From an uncultured Pseudomonadota bacterium (GTDB taxonomy: Bacteria > Myxococcota_A > Polyangia > Fen-1088), in NCBI GenBank assembly GCA_963778795.1, contig CAVZVU010000001.1:1452776-1516775 (forward strand): a stretch of DNA of 64,000 nt. The letters are read 5' to 3'. This document shows, piece after piece, positions 4,218 to 50,100 of the stretch. The translations under genes and the position numbers were made by a program. A model generated the notes under the pieces. That model did not search any database, was not told where the DNA came from, and saw only the letters and a program-made list of their open reading frames with translations. The first letter of the stretch is position 1; the number at the start of each line of letters is the position of its first letter.

Positions 4218-4993
4218 GTGCCGACGCCCGAACAGCGCGCAGGACGCTGGAGCGGTTTCGCCAGCACCGGCAGGCCTGGGACGACAACCGCGGCGTTGCG
4301 CACGCTCTACGCCGAGTGGTATCGCCGCATCGGCGCCGCGCTGCCGCCGCCCGACGCTGGGACCGGCAGATCGAGCTCGGCTCGGGGCCGGGGTTCGCGC
4401 GGGGATTCATCCCGTCGCTGGAGCTGACCGACGTGGTGGCGGCGCCCTGGCACGATCACGAGCTGACCGCCGAGGAGATCCCCGCCGCCGACGGCAGCGT
4501 CGGCGCGCTGGTGCTGTTCGACGTGCTTCACCACCTGCCGTCGCCGCGCCGATTCTTCGTCGAGGCGACGCGCGTGCTGCGGCCGGCGGGGCGCATCGTG
4601 CTGTGCGAGCCGCTGATCAGCCCGCTGTCTTACCCGGTCTACAAGCTGCTGCACGAGGAGCCGGTCGACATGTCGGTCGATCCGCTGGCGCTCGACGCTT
4701 CCGACGGTGAGCGCGCGGACAAGGATCCGTTCGATTCGAATCAGGCGATCCCGACGGTGCTGTTCGGGCGTCACCGGACCGCCTTCGAGCGGGCCTTCCC
4801 GTCGCTGAGGATCGTGTCGGTCGCGCACCTCGCCGGCCCGAGCTATGCGGCGTCGGGCGGATTTTCACGCGGCGCGTTGCTGCCGGTCGCGATGTGGCGC
4901 GCCCTGCACGGCATCGAGCGGCGCCTGCCCGAGTGGATATTTCGCTGGATCGGGTTTCGGCTGCTGGTGGTGATCGAGCGCCGGTTCTCGTAA
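4218..4993 (+). pseudogene. class I SAM-dependent methyltransferase (N-terminal frame changes)
   Basis: IELGSGPGF, ALVLFDVLHHLPSPRRFFVEATRVLRPAGRIVLCEP. The first ~35 codons switch between the frames of ORFs 4218 and 4316 (LRTLYAEWYRRIGAALPP in one, the rest in the other). Start position uncertain. Confidence 0.7.
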
Positions 4994-5266
4994 GGGGGAC
5001 AGCGCATTTCATGCGCGTCGACCTTTTGTTTCCTCCTGGAAAATTCTTGCGCGCGGAGCCTGAAATCGCGTGCAGCGCATTGCATTGGGCCGGTGATTGG
5101 ATTAGTCCTGTCTGCGCTACGGCGACGGCCGGGCGTGGTTGGTGGGCTCACCCACCGACTCTGCGATTCAACCTTAAAATAGGAGACGATCGTGAGGGGC
5201 GGAACCGAGGGCGGCGGAGCTAGGGGTGGAAGCAATACCAGGTGGCAGCGGGAGGAGGTCGAGTCG

Positions 5267-5413
5267 ATGTGGTATCGCGACGCTGACGGCGTGCGCGCGG
5301 AGCTCTTGGCGCAGAAGGAGATCCATCAGATGGAGATCCAGACCTGGCGCCACCCGCTGACGCGGCTCGCGACTATCTGGGCGGGTTGGCGGCGGCGACT
5401 CTGGCGGAGCTGA
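5267..5413 (+). CDS. possible small protein (48 aa), unknown function
   Basis: ATG at 5267 is preceded by GGAGGAGG (5251-5258) with an 8-nt spacer. Third-position GC is high. The ORF ends just before a hairpin at 5424-5477. It overlaps the low-complexity 3' tail of the convergent ORF 5373..6425. No homology recognised. Confidence 0.25.
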   Translation: MWYRDADGVRAELLAQKEIHQMEIQTWRHPLTRLATIWAGWRRRLWRS

Positions 5414-6425
5414 CGTCGCTGTCGCCGGCGCGCAAGGACGTCGGTGAGGATGATAATTGCGACGACGTCGGCGCCGGTGAGCGGGTCCGCGCCACCGGCG
5501 GCAGGCTCGCCGCGTGCTCACGATCGACCGACTCGCGGTAGTGATCGCATCGCTCCTTCCACTCGCGCGTGCTCTTCGGCATCGGGACGCGCGCGCGGGT
5601 GACGAAGGAGATCAGGTCTTTTCCGCCGCGGATCAGATCGCGCCCCTGCCACGCGTAGTGCTCGTCGGCCAGCGACGGCTCGGGCGGCAGCGTGGGGCGA
5701 AAACAGGACAGTCGCTCGGCGGCCGCCACGAACGACGCCCACACGTCGAAGATCTCGACGTCGGTGTGCAGCGTCTCGCACTTGGCGCGCGCGGTCTTGG
5801 CGAGGTCACTCACGTAGGCCTCGATGCCGTTGAACATCTCGAGCCCGTCGAAGGTCGACACCATCACTTCGGCGATGCCGTCGATCGCGCGCATGGTCTG
5901 CGAGATCTTGATGTACCGGCTGCGGTAGAAGTCCTCGATCGGGAAGGCGAAGGCCTTGAACGGCTCGCCCCAGAGCTCGTCGATCCCTTCTTCGCCGCTG
6001 CGGTGAAGCACCATCTTGCCGAGCGCGAGCGCCTCCTGCAGATGCTCGCTGCACTGCCGCATGAGGGCGTTGTCGGAGCGGATCTCCAACCCCAGCGCCT
6101 GGATGTCGACCACCTTGGTGAAGACCTGCGTCGCGCGATTGAACAGCGCGCCGGCGAGCATCGCGCCCTTGACCCGCTGCTTTTGCGGATCGGTCTCCGC
6201 CTCGAAGGCGCGCCGCGCCTCCTCGAGGCGGAAGCCGGGGATGTTGAGCCCGTGCTCGACGTGGTTGAACAGCCGGCGCGTGAGCGCCTCGATCAGCGCC
6301 TTCTTCGCCGCCAGCGTGTCGGCCGGCGCGTCGTAGGCCTTGATCCAGTAGCCGTCGTAGAAGACCCGCCACTGCCCGTCGATCTGACGCTTGGTTCCTG
6401 CTGCCATCTTGCCGTCGCTGTCCAT
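5373..6425 (-). CDS. hypothetical protein, predicted all-alpha, no domain recognised
   Basis: Uninterrupted 350-codon ORF with coding-like composition. The last ~45 codons (..AASLPPVARTRSPAPTSSQLSSSPTSLRAG..) look non-coding and run through a hairpin, so the true stop may lie nearer 5500. Confidence 0.7.
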   Translation of the reverse strand: MDSDGKMAAGTKRQIDGQWRVFYDGYWIKAYDAPADTLAAKKALIEALTRRLFNHVEHGLNIPGFRLEEARRAFEAETDPQKQRVKGAMLAGALFNRATQVFTKVVDIQALGLEIRSDNALMRQCSEHLQEALALGKMVLHRSGEEGIDELWGEPFKAFAFPIEDFYRSRYIKISQTMRAIDGIAEVMVSTFDGLEMFNGIEAYVSDLAKTARAKCETLHTDVEIFDVWASFVAAAERLSCFRPTLPPEPSLADEHYAWQGRDLIRGGKDLISFVTRARVPMPKSTREWKERCDHYRESVDREHAASLPPVARTRSPAPTSSQLSSSPTSLRAGDSDVSSARVAAANPPR

Positions 6426-11103: not shown

Positions 11104-11832
11104 TCACGCTTGCTTCCTCGCCACCAGGATCAGGAAGCCGCCCAGGTGTCGAAGCAGCGGAAGGTCGCAGGCCGCCTGCTCGGCCCAGTTGAACAGCTGC
11201 CCCGCGGGTGGAAACGCGAACACCTTCGAGGTCGGCGTCAGGATGCGGACGCCGCGCACGCCGATCAGCTCGACGCCTGCCGGCAAGTAGGATTGCGCTT
11301 TGCGGGCGGTGTCGTAGCGGGTGAAGACGTCGTGGTCGGTCGTGCCGTCAGCGATGCGCGCCGGCCCGCCCAGGCGCTTGGCCAGATAGCGCAACGAGTA
11401 CGGGTTGTAGAACTCGAGCAGCATGTGGCCCCCCGGCCGCACCAGCCGCGCCAGCTCGACCAGCGCCTTTTCGATCGGCGGGATATGGGCCAGCACCTTC
11501 ATGCTGTAGACCAGATCGACCGATTCGGAAGGGAGCGGCACGTCGGTGAGCGACCCCTGTACCACGCGCAGCCCCCGCCCCTGCGCCGTCTTCAGCATCC
11601 CGCGCGACAGATCCAGCCCCACCGCCGAACGCGCCACCAGCCCCGCCTGGCGCAGCAGCAGCCCGGTTCCGCAGCCGGCCTCGAAGACGTCCCGGCCCTC
11701 GCCGTACTGCCGGATGAGCTGCAGCTCCAGCTCGTCAATCATCCGGTGGTAACCGTGGTGCCGCTCGGCCTCGTAGGTCGTCGAGAAGCGGTCGTAGTAG
11801 GTCTGGGTCGTCGGGGGCGTGATCGTCGACAT
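11104..11832 (-). CDS. class I SAM-dependent methyltransferase
   Basis: VFEAGCGTGLLL (motif I), DLVYSMKVLAHI, VRPGGHMLLEF. ATG at 11832 (MSTITPP) is preferred over the ORF-track start at 11880. Confidence 0.85.
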   Translation of the reverse strand: MSTITPPTTQTYYDRFSTTYEAERHHGYHRMIDELELQLIRQYGEGRDVFEAGCGTGLLLRQAGLVARSAVGLDLSRGMLKTAQGRGLRVVQGSLTDVPLPSESVDLVYSMKVLAHIPPIEKALVELARLVRPGGHMLLEFYNPYSLRYLAKRLGGPARIADGTTDHDVFTRYDTARKAQSYLPAGVELIGVRGVRILTPTSKVFAFPPAGQLFNWAEQAACDLPLLRHLGGFLILVARKQA

Positions 11833-11844
11833 CTTTCGGCAGGC

Positions 11845-11850
11845 ATTATA
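11845..11850 (-). promoter_or_regulatory. possible -10 box (TATAAT on minus strand) 12 nt upstream of the methyltransferase ATG, implying a very short or absent leader
   Basis: A perfect TATAAT in otherwise GC-rich DNA. No convincing -35 box and no Shine-Dalgarno between it and the ATG. Confidence 0.3.
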
Positions 11851-11896
11851 GCGGGGCCATGGCCCAAGGGGCGGCTCCAACGCGGTTCACGTGGGT

Positions 11897-12115
11897 TCAA
11901 AGCGGGGCGGGGACCGACGAGGGCGCGGGTCCTGTCACGGGGTGGGGTCCTCCCCGCTGCGGTCAGATGGCGGGAGCAGCCTGGCTTGTTGTGGCAACTC
12001 CCGATCGCCATTCATCGGAATCGGTCGCGCAGGGCACGACACGCCGCCATCTGACCGCATCGGGGTCCCCCCCACCCCGGGCCACCCGCGCCCTCATCGG
12101 TCCCCGCTCTCAATG
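11897..12115. repeat. long-hairpin repeat element, copy A (about 70-nt self-complementary arms around a ~70-nt core)
   Basis: For example 11959-11973 GCGGTCAGATGGCGG pairs perfectly with 12044-12058 CCGCCATCTGACCGC, and the outer arms pair as well. The core at 11972-12047 is shared with copy B in the opposite orientation. Confidence 0.8.
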
Positions 12116-12167
12116 AGAGAGCTCTCGGCTCGTCCGACGCGGGATCGTTCCCATGTGTCGCAAGCGA

Positions 12168-12380
12168 TCTCGTTGAGAGCACCGAGAAGCGAAGGGCGCG
12201 GGTGACCGGAGTGGGGGGACCCAAATGGGAGCGGACCGCGGCGTGTCGTGCCTTGCGCGACCGATTCCGATGAGCGGTGTTCGGGGGTTGCCACAACAAG
12301 CCAGGCTGCTCCCGCGGTCCGATCCCATTTGGGAGGACCCACGCAGGGCAGGACCCGCGCCCTTTGCTTCTCGGTGCCCC
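12168..12380. repeat. long-hairpin repeat element, copy B (inverted relative to copy A)
   Basis: 12223-12241 pairs with 12311-12329 (1 mismatch). Core blocks 12287-12313, 12254-12273 and 12238-12250 are exact reverse complements of 11972-11998, 12012-12031 and 12035-12047. Confidence 0.8.
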
Positions 12381-12396
12381 CGTTAGGAGAAGGGGG

Positions 12397-13659
12397 TCAG
12401 GCTTCCGCGGCGGCGTGGCGTTGCCGGCGCGCCACGATAACGAACAGCACGCCCGAGATCCCGAAGGCGATCACCGCCAGCTGCAGCGCGGTGGCCACGC
12501 TGGTCGATTTGGCGACCCACCCGATCACCGCCGGCGCCGGCGCGTTGCCCAGCACGTGGATGCCGAACATGAACACCGCCTGCAGCGTCGCGGCGAACTG
12601 CGGCGGCCCCAGCTCGTCGACCACCGCCGCCGAGGGTCCGTTGTAGACCGATAGCAAGAATACCGCGACCGCGGTCAACACCATGAACAGGGGCTTGATC
12701 GTCACCACCAGGCAGCCGACGCCGAACGGGACCGCCAGCAGCATCGATGCGCCGATCGCCAGCGCGTGGCCGCCCGCCGCGCGGCGGTTGAAACGGTCGC
12801 CCGCCATGCCCCCCACGATCACGCCGCCCGCGCCGCAGCCGAGCCCCACGAACGCCATGAACGCGCTGCCGACGGCGACGGTGAAGTGGCGCTCCTCGAC
12901 GATCAGCCAGCGCGCCCAGAAGATCAGCGCGCTGGCGCCGAACGTCGCCAGGATGCCTCCCGCCAGCGCCAGCACGTAGGTGGTCGACAGCAAGTAGGAC
13001 CGCGCCGGCAGCGCCACGGGACGCGGCAACCGCGCGGGCGCCGCGATGAAGGCCGCCAGGATCGCCAGCAGGATCGACGGCCCGCCCGCGATCCAGAACA
13101 CCCCACGCCAGCCGATGACCGGCGCCAGCAACGCGCCCAGCGCCAGCCCGCTGGTGCCGCCGATCGCCATGCCGACGTTGTAGATCCCCAGCGCGCGCCC
13201 GCGCTTCGCCGGTTCGGCGTCGGCGCACAGCAGGGTGTTGGCGCTGGGGCCGTAGGCCCCCTCACCCACGCCGACCAGCGCGCGGAAGAAGAGCAGCATC
13301 GGGTACGACGTCGACAGCGCCGAGCCGATCGTGGCGACGGCCCACACCATGATGCCCGCGAAGATGACCTTGCGCGGTCCGATGCGGTCGGCGATCGGGC
13401 CCGACGCCAGCGAGGCGACCGCGAAGACCAGCAGATTCACCGTCGCCAGCAAGCCCAGCTGGGTCAGCGACAGCTTGAAGGTCTCGCCGATGAGCGGCGT
13501 CATCCCGTACACCACCTGCCGGTCCAGGTAGTTGAAGAAGTTGATCAGCGTCAGCAGGGGCAGCGGCGGAACGCCGCGCGGACGCGCCGGTGCGGGCGGC
13601 GTGCCAAAGGGCGAGGCGAAGGTGGGGTTGGCGGCGGCGGGGTCGGGCGCCCCGATCAT
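12397..13659 (-). CDS. MFS transporter
   Basis: 421 codons from MIGAPD. About 12 hydrophobic segments. MFS signature-like GPIADRIGPRKV between TM2 and TM3. The upstream part of ORF 12397..14247 is an out-of-frame read-through and was not included. Confidence 0.9.
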   Translation of the reverse strand: MIGAPDPAAANPTFASPFGTPPAPARPRGVPPLPLLTLINFFNYLDRQVVYGMTPLIGETFKLSLTQLGLLATVNLLVFAVASLASGPIADRIGPRKVIFAGIMVWAVATIGSALSTSYPMLLFFRALVGVGEGAYGPSANTLLCADAEPAKRGRALGIYNVGMAIGGTSGLALGALLAPVIGWRGVFWIAGGPSILLAILAAFIAAPARLPRPVALPARSYLLSTTYVLALAGGILATFGASALIFWARWLIVEERHFTVAVGSAFMAFVGLGCGAGGVIVGGMAGDRFNRRAAGGHALAIGASMLLAVPFGVGCLVVTIKPLFMVLTAVAVFLLSVYNGPSAAVVDELGPPQFAATLQAVFMFGIHVLGNAPAPAVIGWVAKSTSVATALQLAVIAFGISGVLFVIVARRQRHAAAEA

Positions 13660-14247
13660 CGAAGGCTCTCGAGGCAGGCGATCGCCTCGGGCTTCGACCA
13701 GTCGCGCTTGTTGATGAAGTAGTGGCGCACCTTGCCGCTGGCGTCGACCATGAAGCTCTCGGGGAACTTCTCGGTGCCGAAGGTCTTGGGCACGTTCTTG
13801 CTGAGGTCGAGCAGCACGCCCATCTTCGTCCCCTTGACGAAGAACTGGCGCACGGCGTCCCAGCTGTCGTCGACGCTGACCGCGAGCATGCGGATGTCGG
13901 TCTTCTCGATCCGCCGCGCCAGGTCCTCCATCGAGGGCACCTCCTCGACGCAGGGCGGGCACCAGGTGGCCCAGAAGTTGACCAGCACGGGGTGACCGCG
14001 CTGCGCGCTCAGCGACACCATCTTGCCGTTGGCGTCGGGCAGCTGGAAGTCGGGCGCCTCGCGGTTCTGCAGGAACGGCGGCACCGGATCGGGCGACAGC
14101 GCGCGGCAGGCGTTGGTGCGCGCCTTCTCGAGCCCGTCGTGGGTCGCCGCGAAGAAGCGCACACTCAGGAAGCCGAGGCCGGCGATGGTCAGCAGCACCG
14201 GCCAGAGCCGCGTGCGGGCACGCGGCCGGTTTCACGTCTGGGGTCAC
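13656..14247 (-). pseudogene. TlpA/ResA-family thiol:disulfide oxidoreductase (one N-terminal frame change)
   Basis: Thioredoxin-fold motif FWATWCPPCVEE. Signal anchor [12 protein letters not shown]. The likely start MTPDVKPAA at 14247 is joined to the main frame by a shift near 14215. Its stop overlaps the MFS start (ATGA). Confidence 0.85.
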
Positions 14248-14251
14248 TTCG

Positions 14252-15268
14252 TCAAAGCTCCAATCCGACGACCGGCGCGATCGCGCGCACCGACTCCATC
14301 AGGGTGGCGAACTGCGCCGGCGTCAGCGACTGCGGCCCGTCGGACAGCGCCTTCTCCGGGTCGGGGTGAACCTCGACCATCAGCCCGTCGGCGCCGAGCG
14401 CGATCGCCGCGCGCGCCAGGGCCGGCACCGACAGCGCGATCGCCGGTGCCGTGCGACGGGTCGACGATGATCGGCAGGTGGGTGAGCCGCTTGATGAGCG
14501 GGATCGAGCCGAGGTCGAGCGTGTTGCGGGTCATCGTCTCGAAGGTGCGGATGCCGCGCTCGCACAGGATCACGTTGTAGTTGCCCTGCTTGACGATGTA
14601 CTCGGCGGCCATCAGGAACTCTTGAATCGTCGCCGACAGGCCGCGCTTGAGCATGACGGCGCGGCGCTGCCCGCCGACCGCCTCCAGCAGCGAGAAGTTC
14701 TGCATGTTGCGCGCGCCGATCTGCAGCACGTCGGCGTAGCGCGCCACCAGCTCGACGTCGCGCGTGTCCATCACCTCGGTGACGATCGGCAGGCCGGTCT
14801 CGGCGCGCGCCTCGGCCAGGATGCTCCAGGCCTTCTTCCTTCATGCCCTGGAACGCGTAGGGCGACGTGCGCGGCTTGAACGCGCCGCCGCGCAGGAAGC
14901 GCGCGCCCGCCGTCTTGACCGCCGCGGCGGTCGTCATCGATCTGCTCGCGGCTCTCGACCGCGCACGGGCCGGCGATGACGCCGAAGTGGCCGCCGCCGA
15001 ACTGGCCGCCGCCGATCTTGATCGCGGTGTCGTCGGGCTTCACCTCGCGCGACACCAGCTTCCACGGCTGCGAGATCGGCACCGCGTCGGCGACGCCGGA
15101 CATGACGTTGAACAGCCCGGGGTCGAGCGGCCCCTGGTTGCCGGTGATCCCGATCGCGAGCCGCGTCGAGCCCGGCATCTCGTTGGGCGTGAACCCGAGC
15201 TCTCGGATCCGCGCCTCGACCGACGCGACGTCGTCCTTCGTCGCGTCGGCCTTCATGACGATCAGCAT
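14252..15268 (-). pseudogene. aroF: 3-deoxy-7-phosphoheptulonate (DAHP) synthase, type I-beta with N-terminal regulatory domain (frame-disrupted)
   Basis: MLIVMKADATKDDV.. (ferredoxin-like N domain), [28 protein letters not shown] and IVDPSHGTG are found in three frames. Frame changes near 14440, 14790 and 14930. C-terminus ..APVVGLEL, with the stop at 14252. Confidence 0.85.
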
Positions 15269-15379
15269 GTTTCGAGTGTACGCCGGCCGCGCCGAACAGC
15301 GGAAGGCGGGGCCGCCGAAGTCGGCCCTCCGTCTTCCACGTTGCACGCTCCACGTTCCGCGCGCCGGCGGCCACCCGAC

Positions 15380-20151: not shown

Positions 20152-20224
20152 TGCCCAGGGACAGAGTCGAACTGTCTACACATGGATTTTCAGTCCATTG
20201 CTCTACCAGTTGAGCTACCTGGGC
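20152..20224 (-). tRNA. tRNA-Phe (anticodon GAA)
   Basis: Cloverleaf read by hand: acceptor GCCCAGG/CCTGGGC, D arm GCTC-AACTGGTA-GAGC, anticodon stem ATGGA/TCCAT with loop CTGAAAA, T arm GACAG-TTCGACT-CTGTC, discriminator A. CCA is not encoded. Confidence 0.95.
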
Positions 20225-37855: not shown

Positions 37856-37863
37856 CGGGGCGC

Positions 37864-37945
37864 GGAACGGACCCTCACCCTCACCCTCTCCCTCCTATCC
37901 CCTCTCCCAGTCTGCTGGGAGAGGGCTAGGGTGAGGGTCCGTTCC
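37864..37945. terminator. compound long hairpin between convergent guaB and the response-regulator gene
   Basis: The outer 18-bp stem is perfect: GGAACGGACCCTCACCCT / AGGGTGAGGGTCCGTTCC. Inner stem CCCTCTCCCA / TGGGAGAGGG. Confidence 0.65.
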
Positions 37946-37957
37946 GGTCCTCCCGTG

Positions 37958-39334: not shown

Positions 39335-40956
39335 GCGCGCGGTCCCAAGGCAGGGGCCGCCGCCGCGGGGCGCGCCAAGGTGAGCTCGAAGCGGGTCACG
39401 TCTCCCTCGCGAGCGTAGATCACGTCGCCCCCGTGCGCACGGGCGATCGCGCGCGAGATCGCCAGGCCGAGCCCGGTCCCCTCGGGCTTGGTGGTGAAGA
39501 ACGGCTCGAACAGCTCGCCGACCCGCGCCGCCGGGACGCCGCCGCCGGCGTCCTGCACCCGCACGCGCACCGCGGCGCCGTCGTCGTACACCGTCGCTGC
39601 GACGGTGCCGCCGTCGGGCGAGGCCTCGATGGCGTTGCGCAGCAGGTTGTCGAGCGCGCGCGCCATGGCGTCGACGTCGGCGGGCAGCGACCCGCTGCCG
39701 CCCGCGGTCCGGATGGTCACGCCGCGCAGCGCGCTCCAGGGGGCCAGCGCCTCGACGCGCGTGCGCAACAGCGCCCCGACGTCGGTCTGGTGGCGCGGAC
39801 CGAGCGCGCGCCCCGACACGATCAATAGATCCGCGACCAGCCGGTCGAGCCGGGTGATCTCCGACGACGCGTGCGCGATCGCCTGGACCACCGCCGGCGG
39901 TAGAGGATCGGCGCGTGGACGGAGCTCGGCTTGCCGAGCGGAGTCCGTCGCGGGAGGGTCCGGGAACCCGCCCAGGGTTCCCGGTTGAATGGCGCGTGGA
40001 CGGAGCTCGGCTTGCCGAGCGGAGTCCGTCGCGGGAGGGTCCGGGAACCCTTCCAGGGTTCCCGGTTGAAACGCGTATGTAGGCGTATCGCCGGCTATCG
40101 CCAGATCGAGGCGCAGCTTGATCGACGCCAGCGGGTTGCGCACCTCGTGCGCGACGCCGGCCACCACCCGCCCGAGCGCGACCAGCCGCTCTTGCTGAGC
40201 CAGGTCGCGCCCGAGGCGCTCCTGGATCTCGCGCGCCTCGGCCAGGCGCCGCGCCAGGGTCGCGATCCCGTCGGCGATCGCGCTCAGCTCGCGCACGGGG
40301 GGGCGCGGCACCGGCGTCGACAGATCGGTGGCCAGCGCGCCCAGCGCGCTCTGGATCCCGCCGGCGCCGCGCTTGAACATGGTCAGCGCGCGCGCGGCGC
40401 TGGCGACCAGCAACAGCGCCGACAGCGTGAGCGCCCCGACGAGCAGCCGCCAGCTCTGCGAGTAGGGCGACGGCTTGATCGCGACTGCGACCCATGCCAA
40501 CCGCGGGCTGGTGCCGGCGGCGCTGGGGGTGCGCGCGACGCTCTGGGCCCCCTGGGCGACCCCGACCGGTTCGATTCGCCCCACCAGCACCGCACCCGCG
40601 AGCGGCGACTCGACGTCGACGGCTTGGTGCTCGGCCAGCGCGCGCGCCGCCGCCGCCGCCAGCGGCGGTCGCCAGTCGAGCGGCGCGCGCCCGCCCACCG
40701 CCTCGGGGTGCGCGGCGATCCCCCCGCGCATGCCGATCATCGCCGGCGCGGCCCCGTCGGGCTCGTCCTGGCTGGAGCCCAGCAGGGTTGCCATCTCTTC
40801 GCCGGCCGCCTCGTGGGCCCGCTCCAGGCGCTGCGCCATGCTGAAGGCGATGATCCGGTAGAGGGCCGCGGCCGACAGCACGGCGGTGAAGATCCCCAGG
40901 ATGGCGACGGTCGTCATCCCATGCCCGATCCGCCGCGGTAGCTTCATCACGGACAC
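39331..40956 (-). CDS. sensor histidine kinase (two TM segments, periplasmic loop, HisKA + HATPase_c) carrying a 54-aa repeat insertion in the DHp loop
   Basis: H box HEVRNPLASI, N box DNLLRNAIEA, G1 VQDAGGGV, G2 GTGLGLAIS. TM segments TTVAILGIFTAVLSAAALY and LLVGALTLSALLLVASAA. The start is GTG at 40956 or ATG at 40947. Confidence 0.9.
39910..40071 (+). repeat. two tandem 81-nt REP-like units embedded in-frame in the histidine kinase CDS
   Basis: Units 39910-39990 and 39991-40071 are near identical and homologous to the intergenic copy at 18914-18990. Confidence 0.9.
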
Positions 40957-44036: not shown

Positions 44037-47000
44037 ACGTCTCCGAGCCGTTCATCCGCCGCCCGATCGGCACGTCGCTGCTGATGGTCGGCGTGCTGAT
44101 CGCCGGCGCGGTCGGCTATCGCCAGCTGCCGGTCGCGGCGCTGCCGCAGGTCGACTACCCGACGATCGCGGTCACCACGTTGCTGCCCGGCGCCAGCGCC
44201 GAGACCATGGTGTCGGCGGTGACCACGCCGCTCGAGCGGCAGCTGGGGCAGATCCCGTCGCTGGCGCAGCTGACCTCGGTCAGCAGCGCGGCGACGTCGC
44301 TGATCACGCTGCAGTTCACGCTCGACCGCGACATCGACGCCGCCGAGCAGGACGTGCAGGCGGCGATCAACGCGGCGTCGAACCTGCTGCCGCGCACGCT
44401 GCCGACGCCGCCGACCTACAGCAAGAGCAACCCCGCCGACGTGCCGGTGATCGCGCTCGGCGTCAGCTCCGACACCGCGCCGCTCGAGCGCGTCGACGAC
44501 TACGCCGATTCGATCCTGGCGCAGAAGATCTCGCAGGTCAGCGGCGTCGGCCTGGTCACGCTGAACGGCGGCCAGCGGCCCGCGGTGCGCGTGCAGGTCG
44601 ATCCGGTCGCGCTCGCGGGGCGCGGCCTCAGCCTGGAGGACGTGCGCGCGGTCCTGGTCGCCGCCAACGTCAACCAGCCCAAGGGCAACCTCGACGGCCC
44701 GCGCCTCAACTACACCATCGCCGCCAACGATCAGCTGCAGCAGGCCGCCGGCCTACCGGCCGCTGGTGGTCGCCTACCGCAACGGCGCGCCGATCCGGCT
44801 GTCCGACGTGGCGCAGGTGCTCGACGGCGTCGAGAACTCGCAGCTGGCCGGCTGGGCCAACGGCCACCGCGCCGTGATCCTGAACGTGCAGCGCCAGCCG
44901 GGCGCCAACCTGATCCAGGTCGCCGATCACGTCAAGGCGCTGCTGGCCGCAGCTGGAGACGTCGCTGCCGCAGGGGATCAAGATCGAGATCCTCAGCGAC
45001 CGCACCGACACCGTGCGCGCGTCGGTCGACGACGTGCAGTTCACGCTGCTCCTGACCATCGTGCTGGTGGTCGCGGTGATCTACCTGTTCCTGCGCAGCG
45101 TGCGCGCCACCATCATCCCGGGCGTCGCGGTGCCGCTGTCGCTGGTCGGCGACCTTCGGCGTGATGGCGCTGCTCGGCTACAGCCTCAACAACCTGACGC
45201 TGATGGCGCTGACCATCTCGACCGGCTTCGTCGTCGACGACGCCATCGTCATGATCGAGAACATCGCGCGCTACATCGAGCAGGGCGACAAGCCGCTGGA
45301 CGCGGCGCTCAAGGGGTCGAAGCAGATCGGCTTCACGATCATCTCGCTGACGGTGTCGCTGGTCGCGGTGCTGATCCCGCTGCTGTTCATGGGCGGCGTG
45401 ATCGGGCGGCTGTTCCGCGAGTTCGCGGTGACGCTGAGCACGGCGATCGTCGCGTCGGCGCTGATCTCGCTGACGCTGACGGCGATGATGTGCGCTCACA
45501 TCCTGCGTCCGGTGCATCCCGGGGACGAGAGCGCGATCGCGCGCGGCGCCGAGCGGGTCTTCAGCTGGATGGTCAAGGTCTACGACCGCGGCCTGGTCTG
45601 GGTGCTCGCGCACCGCAAGACCACGATGGTCGCGACCCTGGCGACGGTGCTGCTCACCGTGGTGCTGGCGGTGGTGACGCCCAAGGGGTTGTTCCCGCAG
45701 CAGGACACCGGCATGCTGCTCGGCGTCACCGAGGCCGCCGCCCGACGTCTCGTTCGCGACGATGGCCGAGCGGCAGCGCGCCGTCGCCGACGTGGTCATG
45801 GGCGATCCCGACGTCGACACCGTGGCGTCGTTCATCGGCGCCGACGGCACCAACCCGACGCTGAACACCGGGCGGCTGTCGATCCGCCTCAAGCCGCGCG
45901 CCGACCGCCAGGCCAGCGCGCAGCAGATCATGGATCGCCTGTCGCCGCGGCTGGCCGACGGTCGGCGGCATCGTCGTCTACCTGCAGGCGGTGCAGGATC
46001 TGCAGATCGAGAGCCGCACCAGCCGCACCCAGTACCAGTACACGCTGGAGGACGCCGACCCCGCCGAGCTGACGCGCCTGGGCGCCGCGCGTGCTCGAGC
46101 GGCTGCGCGAGCTGCCCGAGCTGGCCGACGTCGCCAGCGATCAGCAGGAGGGGGCGCGCTTCGCTGTCGCTGGTCGATCGATCGCGACACGGCGTCGCGC
46201 CTGGGCGTCACCGTCGCAGATGATCGACGACACGCTGTACGACGCCTTCGGCCAGCGCCAGGTCTCGACGATCTTCACCCAGCTCAACCTGTACCGCGTG
46301 ATCCTCGAGGTCGCGCCGGCCTTCCAGCAGGGCCCGGACGCGCTGTCGCAGATCTTCCTGCGCTCGGCCAGCGGCGAGTCGGTGCCGCTGAGCGCCGTTC
46401 GCCCACTACGAGCGCGATCCAGGGCGCGCTGTCGATCGCGCACCAGGGGCAGTTCCCGGCGGTCACGCTGTCGTTCAACCTGGCGCGCGGCGTCGTCGCT
46501 GGGCGACGCGGTCGAGGCGGTCGGCGCGCGGTGGCCGAGCTCGGCGCGCCGCCCGGGTTGCACGGCGACTTCCAGGGCGCGGCGCGCGGCGTTCGGCGAG
46601 TCGCTGTCGAGCGAGCCGCTGCTGATCCTGGCGGCGATCGTCACCGTCTACATCGTGCTCGGCGTGCTCTACGAGAGCTACATCCACCCGATCACGATCC
46701 TGTCGACGCTGCCGTCGGCCGGCGTCGGCGCGCTGCTGGCGCTGCTGCTGTGCCGGCTCGGAGCTGTCGGTGATCGCGCTCATCGGCATCATCCTGCTGA
46801 TCGGCATCGTCAAGAAGAACGCCATCATGATGATCGACTTCGCGCTCGAGGCCGAGCGCGACCGGGACCTGATCGCCGCGCGAGGCGATCCACGAGGCCT
46901 GCCTGCTGCGCTTCCGCCCCATCATGATGACCACGATGGCGGCGCTGCTGGGCGGGCTGCCGCTGGCGCTGGGGCAGCGGGACCGGCTCCGAGCTGCGCC

Positions 47001-47191: not shown

Positions 47192-50100
47192 ACATCTCCG
47201 CGCCGTTCATCCGGCGCCCGATCGCGACGTCGCTGCTGGCGGCGGCGCTGCTGCTGGCGGGGCTGGCCGCGTTCACCCAGCTGCCGGTCGCGCCGCTGCC
47301 GCGGTCGACTTTCCCGACCATCCAGGTGTCGGCGCGCGCTGCCGGGCGCCAGCCCGACGACCATGGCGTCGGCGGTGGCGACGCCGCTCGAGCGCCGCTT
47401 CGGCCGCATCGCCGGCCTGACCGAGATGACCTCGGCCAGCGCGCTCGGCTCGACGACGATCACGCTGCAGTTCGATCTCGACCGCGACGTCGACCGCGGC
47501 GGCGCGCGACGTCCAGGCGGCGATCAACGCCGCCGGCGGCGAGCTGCCGTCGAACCTGCCGACCCGCCCGAACTACCGCAAGGTCAACCCGGCCGACTCG
47601 CCGATCCTGATCCTGTCGCTGACCTCGGACACGCTGCCGCTGGCGCAGGTGTTCGACGCCGCGAACAGCATCCTCGCGCAGAAGATCTCGCAGCTGCGAC
47701 GGCGTCGGCCAGGTGTTCGTCGGCGGCGGGCAGCAGCCGGCGGTGCGCGTGCAGGTCGACGCGCAGCGCGCTGGCCGGCATGGGCCTCGGCCTCGAGGAC
47801 GTGCGCGCCGCGCTGGCGCGTCGACCGCCAACCAGCCCAAGGGCTCGATCGCCCAGCGACGGCGTCAGCTACGCGCTGTCGGCCAACGACCAGCTGTTGG
47901 GCGCCGACGCCTACCGCAGTCTGATCGATCGCGTACGCCGAACGGCGCCGGCGTGCGCCTGGGCGACGTCGCCAAGGTCTTCGACGACGTCGAGAACAAC
48001 CGGCTGGCCGCCTGGATCGACGGCAAGCGCGCCGTGCTGATGATCATCCGGCGCGCAGCCGGGCGCGAACATCCTCGAGACGATCGAGCGCATCAAGGCG
48101 GCGCTGCCGCGGCTGACCGCAGTCGATCTCGCCCGCGATCGAGCTCGAGATCGCGCTCGATCGCACCGAGACGATCCGCGCGTCGGTGCGCGACGTCGAG
48201 CTGACCCTGGTCCTGAGCGTGCTGCTGGTGACCGGCGTGGTCTTTCTGTTCCTGCGCAGCGCCGGGCGCGACCGCGATCCCGAGCGTCGCCGTGCCGCTG
48301 TCGCTGGTCGGCACGTTCGGCGTGATGTACCTGCTCGACTACAGCCTCGACAACCTGTCGCTGATGGCGCTGACGATCTCGACCGGGTTCGTCGTCGACG
48401 ACGCCATCGTCGTCACCGAGAACATCGCCCGCCACATCGAGGCCGGGCGCCGACCGCTCGCAGGCGGCGCTGCGAGGGCGCCAAGCAGATCGGCTTCACG
48501 ATCGTGTCGATCACGGCGTCGCTGATCGCGGTGTTCATCCCGATCCTGTTCATGGGCGGCATCGTCGGGCCGCCTGTTCCGCGAGTTCGCGGTGACGCTG
48601 GCGATCGCGATCGCGATCTCGGCGCTGGTGTCGCTGACGCTGACGCCGATGATGGCGGCGCGCCTGCTGCGACCGGCGGCCGCAGCCGACGAGCACGGAG
48701 GCGCTGCCCGCGCGAGCCGAGCGCGTCTTCGAGCGCGCTCGTGCGCGGCTACGAGCGCGCGCTCGGCTGGGTGCTCGACCACCCGCGCCTGATGCTGCTG
48801 GTGACGGCGGCGACGCTGGGGCTGACGATCTTGCTGGCGATCAAGATGCCGAAGGGGCTGTTCCCGCAGCAGGACACCGGTCTGCTGGCCGGCTTCACCG
48901 AGGCGTCGCAGGACATCTCGTCGTCGGCGATGCAGCGAGCGGCAGCAGCGCGCGTCAACGCCATCGTGCTGCGCCGACCCCGACGTGGCGCACGTGGTGT
49001 CGTTCGTCGGCAGCGCCAACGGCTCGACCGGGAACACCGGCACGGTCTTCGTCGCGCTCAAGCCCTACAGCCAGCGCAAGGCGACGGCCGACGAGATCGT
49101 CGGCGCGCCTGCGCCCCAAGCTGGCGCAGATCCCGGGCGTGACGCTGTTCCTGCAGGCGACGCAGGACCTGCGCGTCGGCGGCCGCGGCTCGCGCACCCA
49201 GTACCAGTACACGCTGGAGGACGCCGATCTCGACGAGCTGCAGCAGCTGGGCGCCGCGCATCTTCGACCGCCTGCGCACGCTGCCCGAGCTGCGCGACGT
49301 CGCCACCGATCAGCAGACCGCCGGGCTGCAAGTGTCGCGTCGTGGTCGACCGCGACAGCGCCGCGCGCCTGGGCGTCACCCCGCAGGCGATCGACGACAC
49401 CTGTACGACGCCTTCGGGCAGCGCCAGGTCGCGACCTCGTTCACCGCGACGAACTACTACCGCGTCGTGCTGGAGGCGACGCCCGCGATGCTGAGCGGGC
49501 CCGACCAGCTGTCGCAGATCTACGTGCGCAGCGCGCTCGGCGGCGTGGTGCCGCTGTCGGCGATCGCGCGCTTCGAGATCGGGCCGGCGCCGCTGTCGAT
49601 CACCCACCAGGGGCAGTTCCCGGCGATGACGATCTCGTTCAACCTGGCGCCCGACAAGTCGCTGGGCCAGGCGGTGCAGGCGATCCAGGCGGCGCTGCGC
49701 GCAGATCGGCATGCCGGCCAGCGTGCGCGCCGGCTTCAAGGGGACGGCGCAGGCGTTCACGCGCGTCGCTCGACAGCGAGCCGTGGCTGATCCTGATGGC
49801 GCTGCTGGTGGTCTACGTCGTGCTGGGGATCCTGTACGAGAGCCTGATCCACCCGCTGACGATCCTGTCGACGCTGCCGTCGGCGGCGCTGGGGGCGCTG
49901 GTCGCGCTGTGGCTGTTCAAGCTCGACTTCAGCATCATCGCCCTCATCGGCGTCGTGCTGCTGCTGGGCATCGTCAAGAAGAACGCCATCATGATGATCG
50001 ACTTCGCGCTCGAGGCCGAGCGCGCCGAGAACCTCGACCCCAAGGAGGCGATCCGCCGCGCCTGCCTGATGCGCTTCCGGCCGATCCTGATGACCACGCT

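Follow-up and report, generated by a model that had tools for sequence, protein, structure and literature searches.

The hairpin-folding MITEs (miniature inverted-repeat transposable elements) of bacteria include ERIC/IRU, Correia/NEMIS, RUP and YPAL. Both typical MITEs and REPINs reach tens to hundreds of copies. Here we describe a composite of two long inverted hairpins, ~520 bp in all (about 11875–12393), in a 64-kb window of the 1.84-Mb contig CAVZVU010000001.1 from an uncultured member of the Myxococcota. The window is the whole stretch of DNA analysed, and counts of copies within this genome cover the window only. The composite has the same nested topology as the REPINs of the REPIN/RAYT system, in which palindromic units are inverted around a short spacer (Bertels & Rainey 2011, PMC3116915; PMC3337134; Nunvar et al. 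2010, PMC2817692). By definition (PMC3733652), a REP unit is ~20–40 nt long and one of its ends bears the conserved tetranucleotide GTAG or CGTC. The unit ends of the composite carry TYAAR and CTCRWYGAG instead, and its only conserved CGTC lies in the central spacer.

The composite lies in the 564-nt spacer between the stop codon of a major facilitator superfamily (MFS) transporter gene (12397–12399) and the ATG (11832) of an S-adenosylmethionine (SAM)-dependent methyltransferase gene, both on the minus strand. We found no described myxobacterial family of such elements in the literature. Comparison of its copies indicates that it is most likely an uncatalogued miniature non-autonomous mobile element.

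Results

Architecture of the composite

How are the two hairpins arranged? Both are long imperfect palindromes of ~205 nt, lying in opposite orientation at 11904–12110 (copy A) and 12176–12380 (copy B). They belong to two ~230-bp modules set tail-to-tail around a unique spacer of ~50 nt. Since the modules are inverted and tail-to-tail, they act as very long terminal inverted repeats (TIRs); A matches the reverse complement of B at 84% identity. The first-pass annotation of this DNA had recognised a pair of elements at 11897–12380. It was right about the two hairpins and about the region, but end-to-end alignment with a second locus, described below, joins them into one composite and extends the unit to about 11875–12393. 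The three core blocks that it had paired (11972–11998 with 12287–12313, 12012–12031 with 12254–12273, and 12035–12047 with 12238–12250) are exact reverse complements when checked against the window, and the arm sequences it quoted for both copies are present. The inverted repeat said to link the copies was found as 12106–12123/12163–12180 (83%), the description of the region as one large imperfect palindrome holds, and the flanking MFS stop and methyltransferase ATG are where it placed them.

On a single strand each module forms an interrupted stem of ~65–70 bp that presents a sequence-conserved core of ~75 nt. The stem is built of fixed blocks (AGGGCGCGGGT, a TCC bulge and a 4 × 4 pyrimidine loop) and of two blocks that vary between copies but are always complementary. 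The differences between A and B are spread unevenly: the two variable stem blocks differ at about half their positions, with full compensation, whereas little or nothing has changed in AGGGCGCGGGTCCTG, GGGTCCTCCC and the 75-nt core. The core has six differences, four of them within one apical stretch of ~10 nt. A 31-nt stretch of the core (11974–12004, allowing up to three mismatches) occurs twice in the window, against a chance expectation of 0.00, and the conserved block GGGCGCGGGT occurs four times in alternating orientation.

A second locus

Does the composite recur elsewhere? A profile of two spurious open reading frames (ORFs) of the window, whose core reads ...AWLVVATP..SSESVAQGTTRR..., was searched against 1.84 billion representative proteins. 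The matches P0241, P0242, P0244, P0245, P0247 and P0248 read as translations of related elements, and all of these except P0244 derive from five soil-metagenome runs. For P0242 and for P0247 a single alignment spans the forward module, the spacer and the inverted module, while that of P0245 extends as far as the beginning of the inverted one. Three further matches of the same search (P0243, P0246, P0249) are unrelated repeat proteins and were rejected.

P0244 led to L016, a 15.6-kb metagenome contig from the European Nucleotide Archive (73% G+C, Myxococcota). L016 holds a forward copy (C, about 4962–5187) and an inverted copy (D, about 5259–5480), in the same tail-to-tail order as in the window. 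The window at 11870–12410 aligns end to end with L016:4925–5510 at 86% column identity. The alignment takes in the outer tails (TTCAAAG; TTAGRAGRAAGG), both hairpins, the CTCRWYGAG motif after each, and the central spacer. By this alignment, hairpins A and B are two modules of one composite, not independent elements. The L016 composite separates two convergent genes, folD and a PilZ gene that belongs to the Myxococcota-specific TIGR02266 family and adjoins parB/parA.

Which stem variant a hairpin carries depends on its position and not on the genome: CCCCGCTGC(G/A)GTC is common to A and C, CCCAAATGGGATCGGA to B and D. The closest homologue of module 1 is the forward copy of L016 (L016:4964–5181), and that of module 2 is its inverted copy (L016:5262–5480, minus strand). 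It follows that the difference between modules 1 and 2 predates the divergence of the two composites, and that this inverted palindromic doublet with its short spacer was a pair before they split. Next to the core, GGGAACGAGCC is common to C and D, and GGGAGC-AGCC stands there in A and B. This pattern suggests that modules within a composite have exchanged some sequence.

From left to right, the composite opens with the outer tail of module 1 (11875–11903, plus strand), made up of CTCCAAC (11875–11881), a variable stretch and TTCAAAG (11896–11902); where exactly the left boundary falls is uncertain to within a few bases. At the opposite end of the composite, CTCCTAAC answers to CTCCAAC in inverted form. 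The tail aligns with GCGCTTCTAAGC...TTTTCAAAG of L016, whose CTTCTAAGC motif, the match to CTCCAAC, falls within the DNA inserted there by comparison with empty sites. Hairpin module 1 (copy A, type 1; 11904–12110, plus strand) has its 5' arm at 11904–11971 and its 3' arm at 12048–12110, the stem being interrupted by the conserved 3-nt bulge TCC and a conserved 4 × 4 pyrimidine internal loop, TCCT/TCCC. Its core (11972–12047, plus strand) reads GGGAGCAGCCTGGCTTGTTGTGGCAAC ... TCATCGGAATCGGTCGCGCA ... CACGACACGCCGC; the sole variable part is the apical stretch of ~10 nt at 12003–12011, and the core as a whole is nearly invariant across the four copies and two genomes. Directly 3' of the hairpin stands the short palindromic motif CTCAATGAG (CTCRWYGAG; 12109–12117, plus strand), which follows all four hairpins.

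The central spacer (12118–12168) is non-palindromic. Both of its halves, GCTC.C.GCTCGTC.GA..CGG and CGTTCC.A..TGTCGC.AG.GATCTC, are conserved between the window and L016, which has ~28 extra GATC-rich bases. Module 2 has as its 3' motif CTCGTTGAG, which the minus strand reads as CTCAACGAG, at 12169–12177 (minus strand). Hairpin module 2 itself (copy B, type 2; 12176–12380, minus strand, core 12238–12313) is inverted with respect to module 1. Its outer tail (12381–12393, minus strand) reads CCTTCTCCTAACG on the minus strand, with GTTAGGAG at 12382–12389 on the plus strand, and ends 3 nt from the MFS stop. It aligns with GCTTAGAAGGAAGG of L016, a tail that is missing from the empty sites.

How many further copies are there? 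Neither the window nor the retrieved loci yielded an additional or degenerate copy when scanned with nhmmer profiles built from two hairpins or from four. Exact scans with 19–20-mers of the core (genome, metagenome and viral contigs) and blastn against plasmids gave either no match or chance matches to DNA that was low in G+C or unrelated. These scans carry little weight: they missed the L002 contig, described below, and L016, though both contain the word, so that the assemblies carrying the composite lie outside those collections and abundance was not measured thereby. A chimeric six-frame protein query of both hairpins found no protein family and no copy.

Conservation of the fold

The predicted RNA folds of A and B have energies of −156 and −135 kcal/mol (z = −10.8 and −9.8 against dinucleotide shuffles), and none of 200 shuffles was as good. 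Where the two copies differ in sequence, does the stem survive? Of the 72 pairs predicted in the A/B alignment, 16 differ in both partners and three in a single partner (GC to GU or UG to UA, in either direction), and none is broken. The covariation noted in the first-pass annotation, preserving a long stem, is thus confirmed. When the 3' partners were slid by 1–3 columns as a control, only 0–2 pairs appeared compensated, and none of 500 shuffles reached the observed value. Over all four hairpins, 18 of the 72 pairs carry compensated changes. These counts come from four complete copies at the DNA level, in two genomes, and a single partial orthologue, the copies being related to one another. 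Apparent breaks in the outermost block are partly MAFFT misalignment of a hypervariable stretch; within each copy the pairing is perfect. Given this number of compensated pairs, and no broken pair between A and B, we conclude that the folded shape of the composite is most likely under selection.

The TCC bulge and the 4 × 4 pyrimidine loop are the same in all four hairpins. Since these features are unpaired, their identity argues against simple homogenisation of one arm by the other. The helix predicted inside the core shows no covariation among the four hairpins, being invariant save for one break in D.

If the fold is maintained, which fold is it? Taken whole as a single strand, the composite is predicted to form a giant A:B hairpin at −216 kcal/mol, against −86 and −84 kcal/mol for the local hairpins (−170 together). 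The variable blocks, however, are mismatched in the giant hairpin and perfect in each local one. To judge by these blocks, it is the local hairpins that the compensated changes maintain, and not the A:B duplex. Neither strand folds better than its complement, and the four hairpins have 8 wobble-type (G–U) mismatches on one strand and 6 on the other, so that neither stands out as the transcribed strand.

Presence and absence in relatives

The first-pass annotation had proposed comparing the syntenic locus in related genomes, and this comparison reveals both presence and absence. Six syntenic contigs from at least three relatives (L004–L005, L006–L008 and L015), with the same gene order, have empty sites at the window locus: their flanking proteins are 89–94% identical to those of the window, and only 47–109 nt separate the MFS stop from the methyltransferase ATG. 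A 98%-identical relative, represented in two Joint Genome Institute metagenomes (L002 and L003), carries module 1 at the same place. The L002 and L003 contigs both begin inside hairpin module 1, as seen at L002:1–30 and L003:1. A 13-mer common, in opposite orientation, to the L015 spacer and the window flank is at about chance level and was discounted.

The L016 locus has its own empty sites. In L017, L018 and L019, whose PilZ proteins are at least 90% identical to that of L016, ~18 nt stand where L016 has ~570, and folD continues into or up to the end of the PilZ gene. By comparison with these empty sites, the DNA inserted in L016 includes the tails CCTTCCTTCTAAGC and GCTTAGAAGCGCC. At L017:2218–2300 the folD frame runs on, overlapping the end of the convergent PilZ gene. 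In L016 a TAG at 4926–4928 ends folD immediately ahead of the insertion, giving it a C-terminus unlike that in L017.

How fast does the composite change? Between L002 and the window, the last ~145 nt of A are unchanged, whereas five changes fall in the adjoining 72 nt of flank and the third codon positions of the methyltransferase gene are 7.8% different. By our calculation, the probability of zero changes in 145 nt at the 7.8% rate is ~1e-5. Module 1 is, by this comparison, conserved above the neutral rate. The only two L002 differences in A lie 14–17 nt from the contig end, in a variable stem block; they are uncompensated, giving two stem mismatches, and they make the arm identical to the L016 variant. 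They may reflect assembly breakage, or a mix of copies, at a repeated or strongly folding sequence. Several window ORFs look frameshifted, so small sequence errors in the element are possible; module 1 is independently confirmed by L002 and L003.

Coding capacity and transcription signals

All six frames through the element are open, as expected at 70% G+C. Family members, however, differ by 1-nt indels in the core, both in the apical stretch and next to GGGAGC, so that no reading frame is conserved and the element is non-coding. The small ORFs had already been called spurious, which these indels bear out, and a small conserved peptide was rejected because every frame is broken by them.

Rfam 15, at gathering thresholds over the whole window, returned only a tRNA at 20152–20224. 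In the region of the composite there were only plant microRNA-precursor models far below threshold and a weak VA RNA match (E 8.2), and sub-threshold matches of this sort are generic to any long hairpin. The search thus agrees with the earlier statement that the element belongs to no described family. No sigma-70-type promoter or intrinsic terminator consensus was found inside the element or at its conserved edges, and no T-tract follows the hairpins. Three observations tell against an independent small RNA gene: no such signals were found, there is no strand asymmetry, and the locus differs between genomes.

Other candidates were set aside. A retron msr-msd RNA, which would have a two-domain msr/msd fold and an RT gene beside it, has no Rfam match here, and no reverse transcriptase (RT) domain lies near the window copy or the L016 copy. 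6S RNA, Y RNA and Pxr likewise have no Rfam match. A sigma-54 promoter in the core was rejected since TGGCAA is present but TTGC is absent at the right spacing. The parS candidate in the left flank, GGTTCACGTGGGTTC, is not palindromic, and its CACGTG is CACATG in L002. An integron attC site was rejected for want of R boxes.

Discussion

What kind of element is the composite? We take it most likely to be a miniature, non-autonomous mobile element. At ~520 bp it is below the MITE limit of ~600 bp, and it has no coding capacity. Its TIRs are the inverted modules themselves, with CTCCAAC and CTCCTAAC as outer motifs, and in L016 both ends carry CTTCTAAGC(G/A)GCGGCGCGCCGG. It is dispersed over two unrelated loci in two genomes and five metagenomic ORFs. 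Recurrence as a unit, together with empty sites at both loci, favours the MITE-like option with long TIRs, one of those that the first-pass annotation had offered. Another of its options, a structured RNA, is weakened by the want of an Rfam match, of signals and of strand bias, and is retained below as a rival. Uniqueness of the core to this locus, or membership of a catalogued family, had been named as grounds for giving up the proposal. L016 supplies a second copy, and no match was found in the families searched.

We think it rather probable that the composite represents a new family of foldback mobile DNA, MITE/REPIN-like and with long TIRs, whose recognised form is the folded single strand. 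The compensated changes keep the local hairpins, and there is no strand bias; we infer from this that the form that matters is a hairpin of single-stranded DNA. How might such an element move? An enzyme encoded elsewhere would cut the composite and re-insert it. This enzyme would read the folded module on single-stranded DNA, most plausibly as the IS200/IS605 TnpA and RAYT transposases read hairpins. With modules in both orientations, one correctly oriented hairpin would be offered on whichever strand becomes single-stranded. At both loci the composite lies within a few bases of stop codons (module 2 lies 3–14 nt after the stop of a gene that would read into it), and it would be expected to land just 3' of stop codons without obvious target duplication. 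As a side effect, host transcripts reading into the composite would acquire a very stable hairpin.

Several observations weigh against this interpretation. At neither locus did we see a clean target-site duplication; L016 was compared with L017–L019, whose flanks are ~9% diverged, which limits the comparison. The window has AAGGGG on both sides, offset by 3 nt on one side and not flush with the ends; a target duplication is possibly absent at these loci. Neither the ~45 larger ORFs scanned in the window nor the genes called in L016 include a recognisable transposase, RT, integrase or Y1/HUH gene, and neither sequence showed an autonomous element with matching ends. The 64-kb window and the 10.6 kb read of the L016 contig contain a single composite each, so that copy number may be low. 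The conservation above the neutral rate and the conserved unpaired features would also fit an RNA or DNA function that benefits the host. Finally, loss from the relatives instead of gain is conceivable at either locus.

Could the modules act as RNA? Each module might be a structured non-coding RNA gene or a cis-acting RNA part, its rod-like transcript presenting the conserved 75-nt loop and the whole spreading horizontally as an RNA cassette. On this view the arms would covary owing to selection for the folded RNA, and specificity might be set by the variable stem blocks. We regard this as unlikely. It would explain the strong covariation with conserved bulges and loops and the conservation above neutrality; the G–U pairs at the stem base, conserved in A and B of the window, fit it as well, as does the position of module 2, which at both loci follows the stop of the upstream gene in the same orientation. 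But one transcript of the composite would contain the core once in sense and once as its complement, which is odd for a sequence-specific RNA function. The unbiased wobble pairs (8 versus 6) and the equal folding of both strands tell against it too, as do the missing promoter or terminator consensus and Rfam match, and the element is non-syntenic between the genomes.

A further variant joins function to mobility, and we consider it unlikely as well. It holds that the hairpin module is a functional folded nucleic acid (RNA or single-stranded DNA) of a new class, a rod in which the invariant 75-nt loop is accompanied by two hypervariable paired blocks that serve as address or specificity determinants for a partner enzyme, and that the composite is a self-spreading, structure-guided cassette bringing in the module in either orientation.

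Alternatively, the composite could be a structural DNA site serving the host: a cruciform or protein-binding cassette at gene 3' ends, like the gyrase- and IHF-binding BIME/REP sites, or else a bidirectional transcription barrier or a stabiliser of mRNA 3' ends, spread by occasional recombination. Its place immediately after stop codons, and between convergent genes in L016, would suit such a site, and so would the fourfold GGGCGCGGGT block in alternating orientation, on double-stranded DNA, the conserved central spacer and the extreme predicted stability of the hairpins. Close relatives, however, do without the composite at both loci, binding to double-stranded DNA leaves the compensated changes in the variable blocks unexplained, and the hairpins lack a T-tract. 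We judge this distinctly improbable.

A local accident, that is, an inverted duplication or template-switch palindrome now decaying, with its complementarity kept only by hairpin-templated repair, would account for the large imperfect palindrome, for the better energy of the giant hairpin and for the hint of module exchange next to the core, but it is scarcely credible and close to refuted by the end-to-end alignment with L016, since the same composite, with its type-1 and type-2 arms and its spacer, recurs in soil metagenomes and, in a second genome, at a locus unrelated to this one, since the asymmetric arm features are conserved in all copies, and since conserved and saturated blocks alternate, unlike uniform decay.

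What follows if the composite is indeed mobile DNA? The Myxococcota have large genomes whose small mobile DNA is poorly charted, and the composite would add a family with an unusual nested design. It offers a clear case in which the fold, not the sequence, is conserved in parts of a mobile element, which points to a single-stranded intermediate and to a structure-reading enzyme yet to be found. Such elements may also break short-read assemblies, as where the L002 and L003 contigs start inside module 1, and they seed spurious ORFs in protein databases. Very stable hairpins directly after stop codons can alter transcript ends. If the structure-guided reading were true, the Myxococcota would harbour a new class of structured nucleic acid, not a passive MITE.

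Flanking genes and other features of the window

Both flanking genes lie outside the element. Upstream is the MFS transporter gene (12397–13659, minus strand; 420 aa). Downstream is the class I SAM-dependent methyltransferase gene (11104–11832, minus strand), which has many homologues labelled Polyangia/Myxococcales. A conserved (T/C)ATAAT box lies 5' of the methyltransferase ATG, 14 nt away in the window (11845–11850) and 14–20 nt away across the relatives (e.g. L004, L007, L015). Since all relatives have a TATAAT or CATAAT box at this distance, the methyltransferase gene would seem to have its own promoter downstream of the inserted element, and a very short or absent 5' leader.

The ~45 larger ORFs scanned in the window specify ordinary chromosomal functions. 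Their products include GMP synthase, IMP dehydrogenase, alanyl-tRNA synthetase, CCA/poly(A) polymerase, a Ser/Thr kinase, sigma-54 activators, RND efflux proteins and several methyltransferases. DAHP synthase is read in two frames (14244–14774 and 14771–15346; region 14244–15346), where relatives have a single 337-aa gene, and matches to an AcrB-type RND transporter are distributed over three ORFs (45080–46927 and 49143–49790). These split frames are either pseudogenes or indel errors of assembly. In L016, folD is split in much the same manner.

Two further repeats were seen. At 37863–37946, beginning 8 nt past the IMP dehydrogenase stop, a hairpin has 30-nt arms, CGGAACGGACCCTCACCCTCACCCTCTCCC ... 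GGGAGAGGGCTAGGGTGAGGGTCCGTTCCG, that are 93% complementary; it resembles a REP-type GGGTGAGGG/CCCTCTCCC palindrome. A smaller relative of that motif occurs in the MFS–methyltransferase spacer of L015, the position held by the composite in the window. At 39910–40075 a unit of ~81 nt is present in two tandem copies, each with the small palindromes CTCGGCTTGCCGAG and CCGGGAACCCnnCCAGGGTTCCCGG; the repeat falls within a histidine kinase gene's long open frame and may be an in-frame duplication of 27 codons.

Relation to described elements

How does the composite compare with the systems already described? The Tn3-derived TIMEs have a 38-bp inverted repeat (IR), with GGGG outermost and TAAG innermost, and a 5-bp duplication. 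The start of the module 2 stem, GGGGGCACC, resembles the IR of Tn21, but the likeness did not hold up: the order of motifs is reversed, the TAAG-like motif lying outside, the rest cannot be aligned, and there is no 5-bp duplication. A Tn3-type IR or TIME was therefore rejected.

The foldback (FB) elements and long-TIR MITEs of eukaryotes share with the composite their very long TIRs, a near-total palindrome and a short middle. They belong to another domain of life, however, and their TIRs consist of tandem subrepeats and have no hairpins with a conserved loop. In the BIME-1/RIP elements of enterobacteria, two inverted REPs flank an IHF site; they resemble the composite in their tail-to-tail units, their conserved middle and their location at gene 3' ends, and differ from it in size and in being high-copy.

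Nearer in kind are the MITEs of the ERIC, Correia, RUP and YPAL type. These too are small, non-coding and bounded by TIRs, are present or absent in intergenic positions, carry no gene of their own and are co-transcribed with their neighbours as stable hairpins. On the other hand, they form a single hairpin of 100–170 bp with TIRs of 20–30 bp and have defined target duplications (e.g. TA), whereas in the composite each TIR is a 205-nt hairpin, the stems covary block by block and no duplication is evident.

With the ends of IS200/IS605 elements and with their miniature derivatives, the PATEs (for the enzyme superfamily, see PMC6006769), the likeness would consist in a transposase that reads imperfect hairpins on single-stranded DNA, by structure over sequence and without target duplication. 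IS200/IS605 ends differ in that they are not inverted repeats of one another and their hairpins are of ~20–30 nt; no TnpA or TnpB gene lies near the composite.

REPINs, finally, resemble the composite in more than topology. In both, the doublet is the evolving unit, and both are non-coding, extragenic at gene ends, thought to act as folded single-stranded DNA and free of clear target duplication. Their scale differs: REPIN units are 20–40 nt against ~205–230 here, and a REPIN is ~100 bp against ~520 bp for the composite. REPs are without the conserved 75-nt apical core. A genome with a REP–RAYT system has the repeats in high copy number and one RAYT gene, which they often flank; on the side of the composite the apparent copy density is low and no RAYT gene was seen in the window. 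Because of its unit size, its 75-nt core, its block-wise covariation and the absence of tags from its unit ends, we have not filed the composite as a REPIN. Judged on the copies compared here, it differs from REPINs and hairpin MITEs alike in the size of its unit, in its conserved 75-nt apical core and in the block-wise covariation of its stems.

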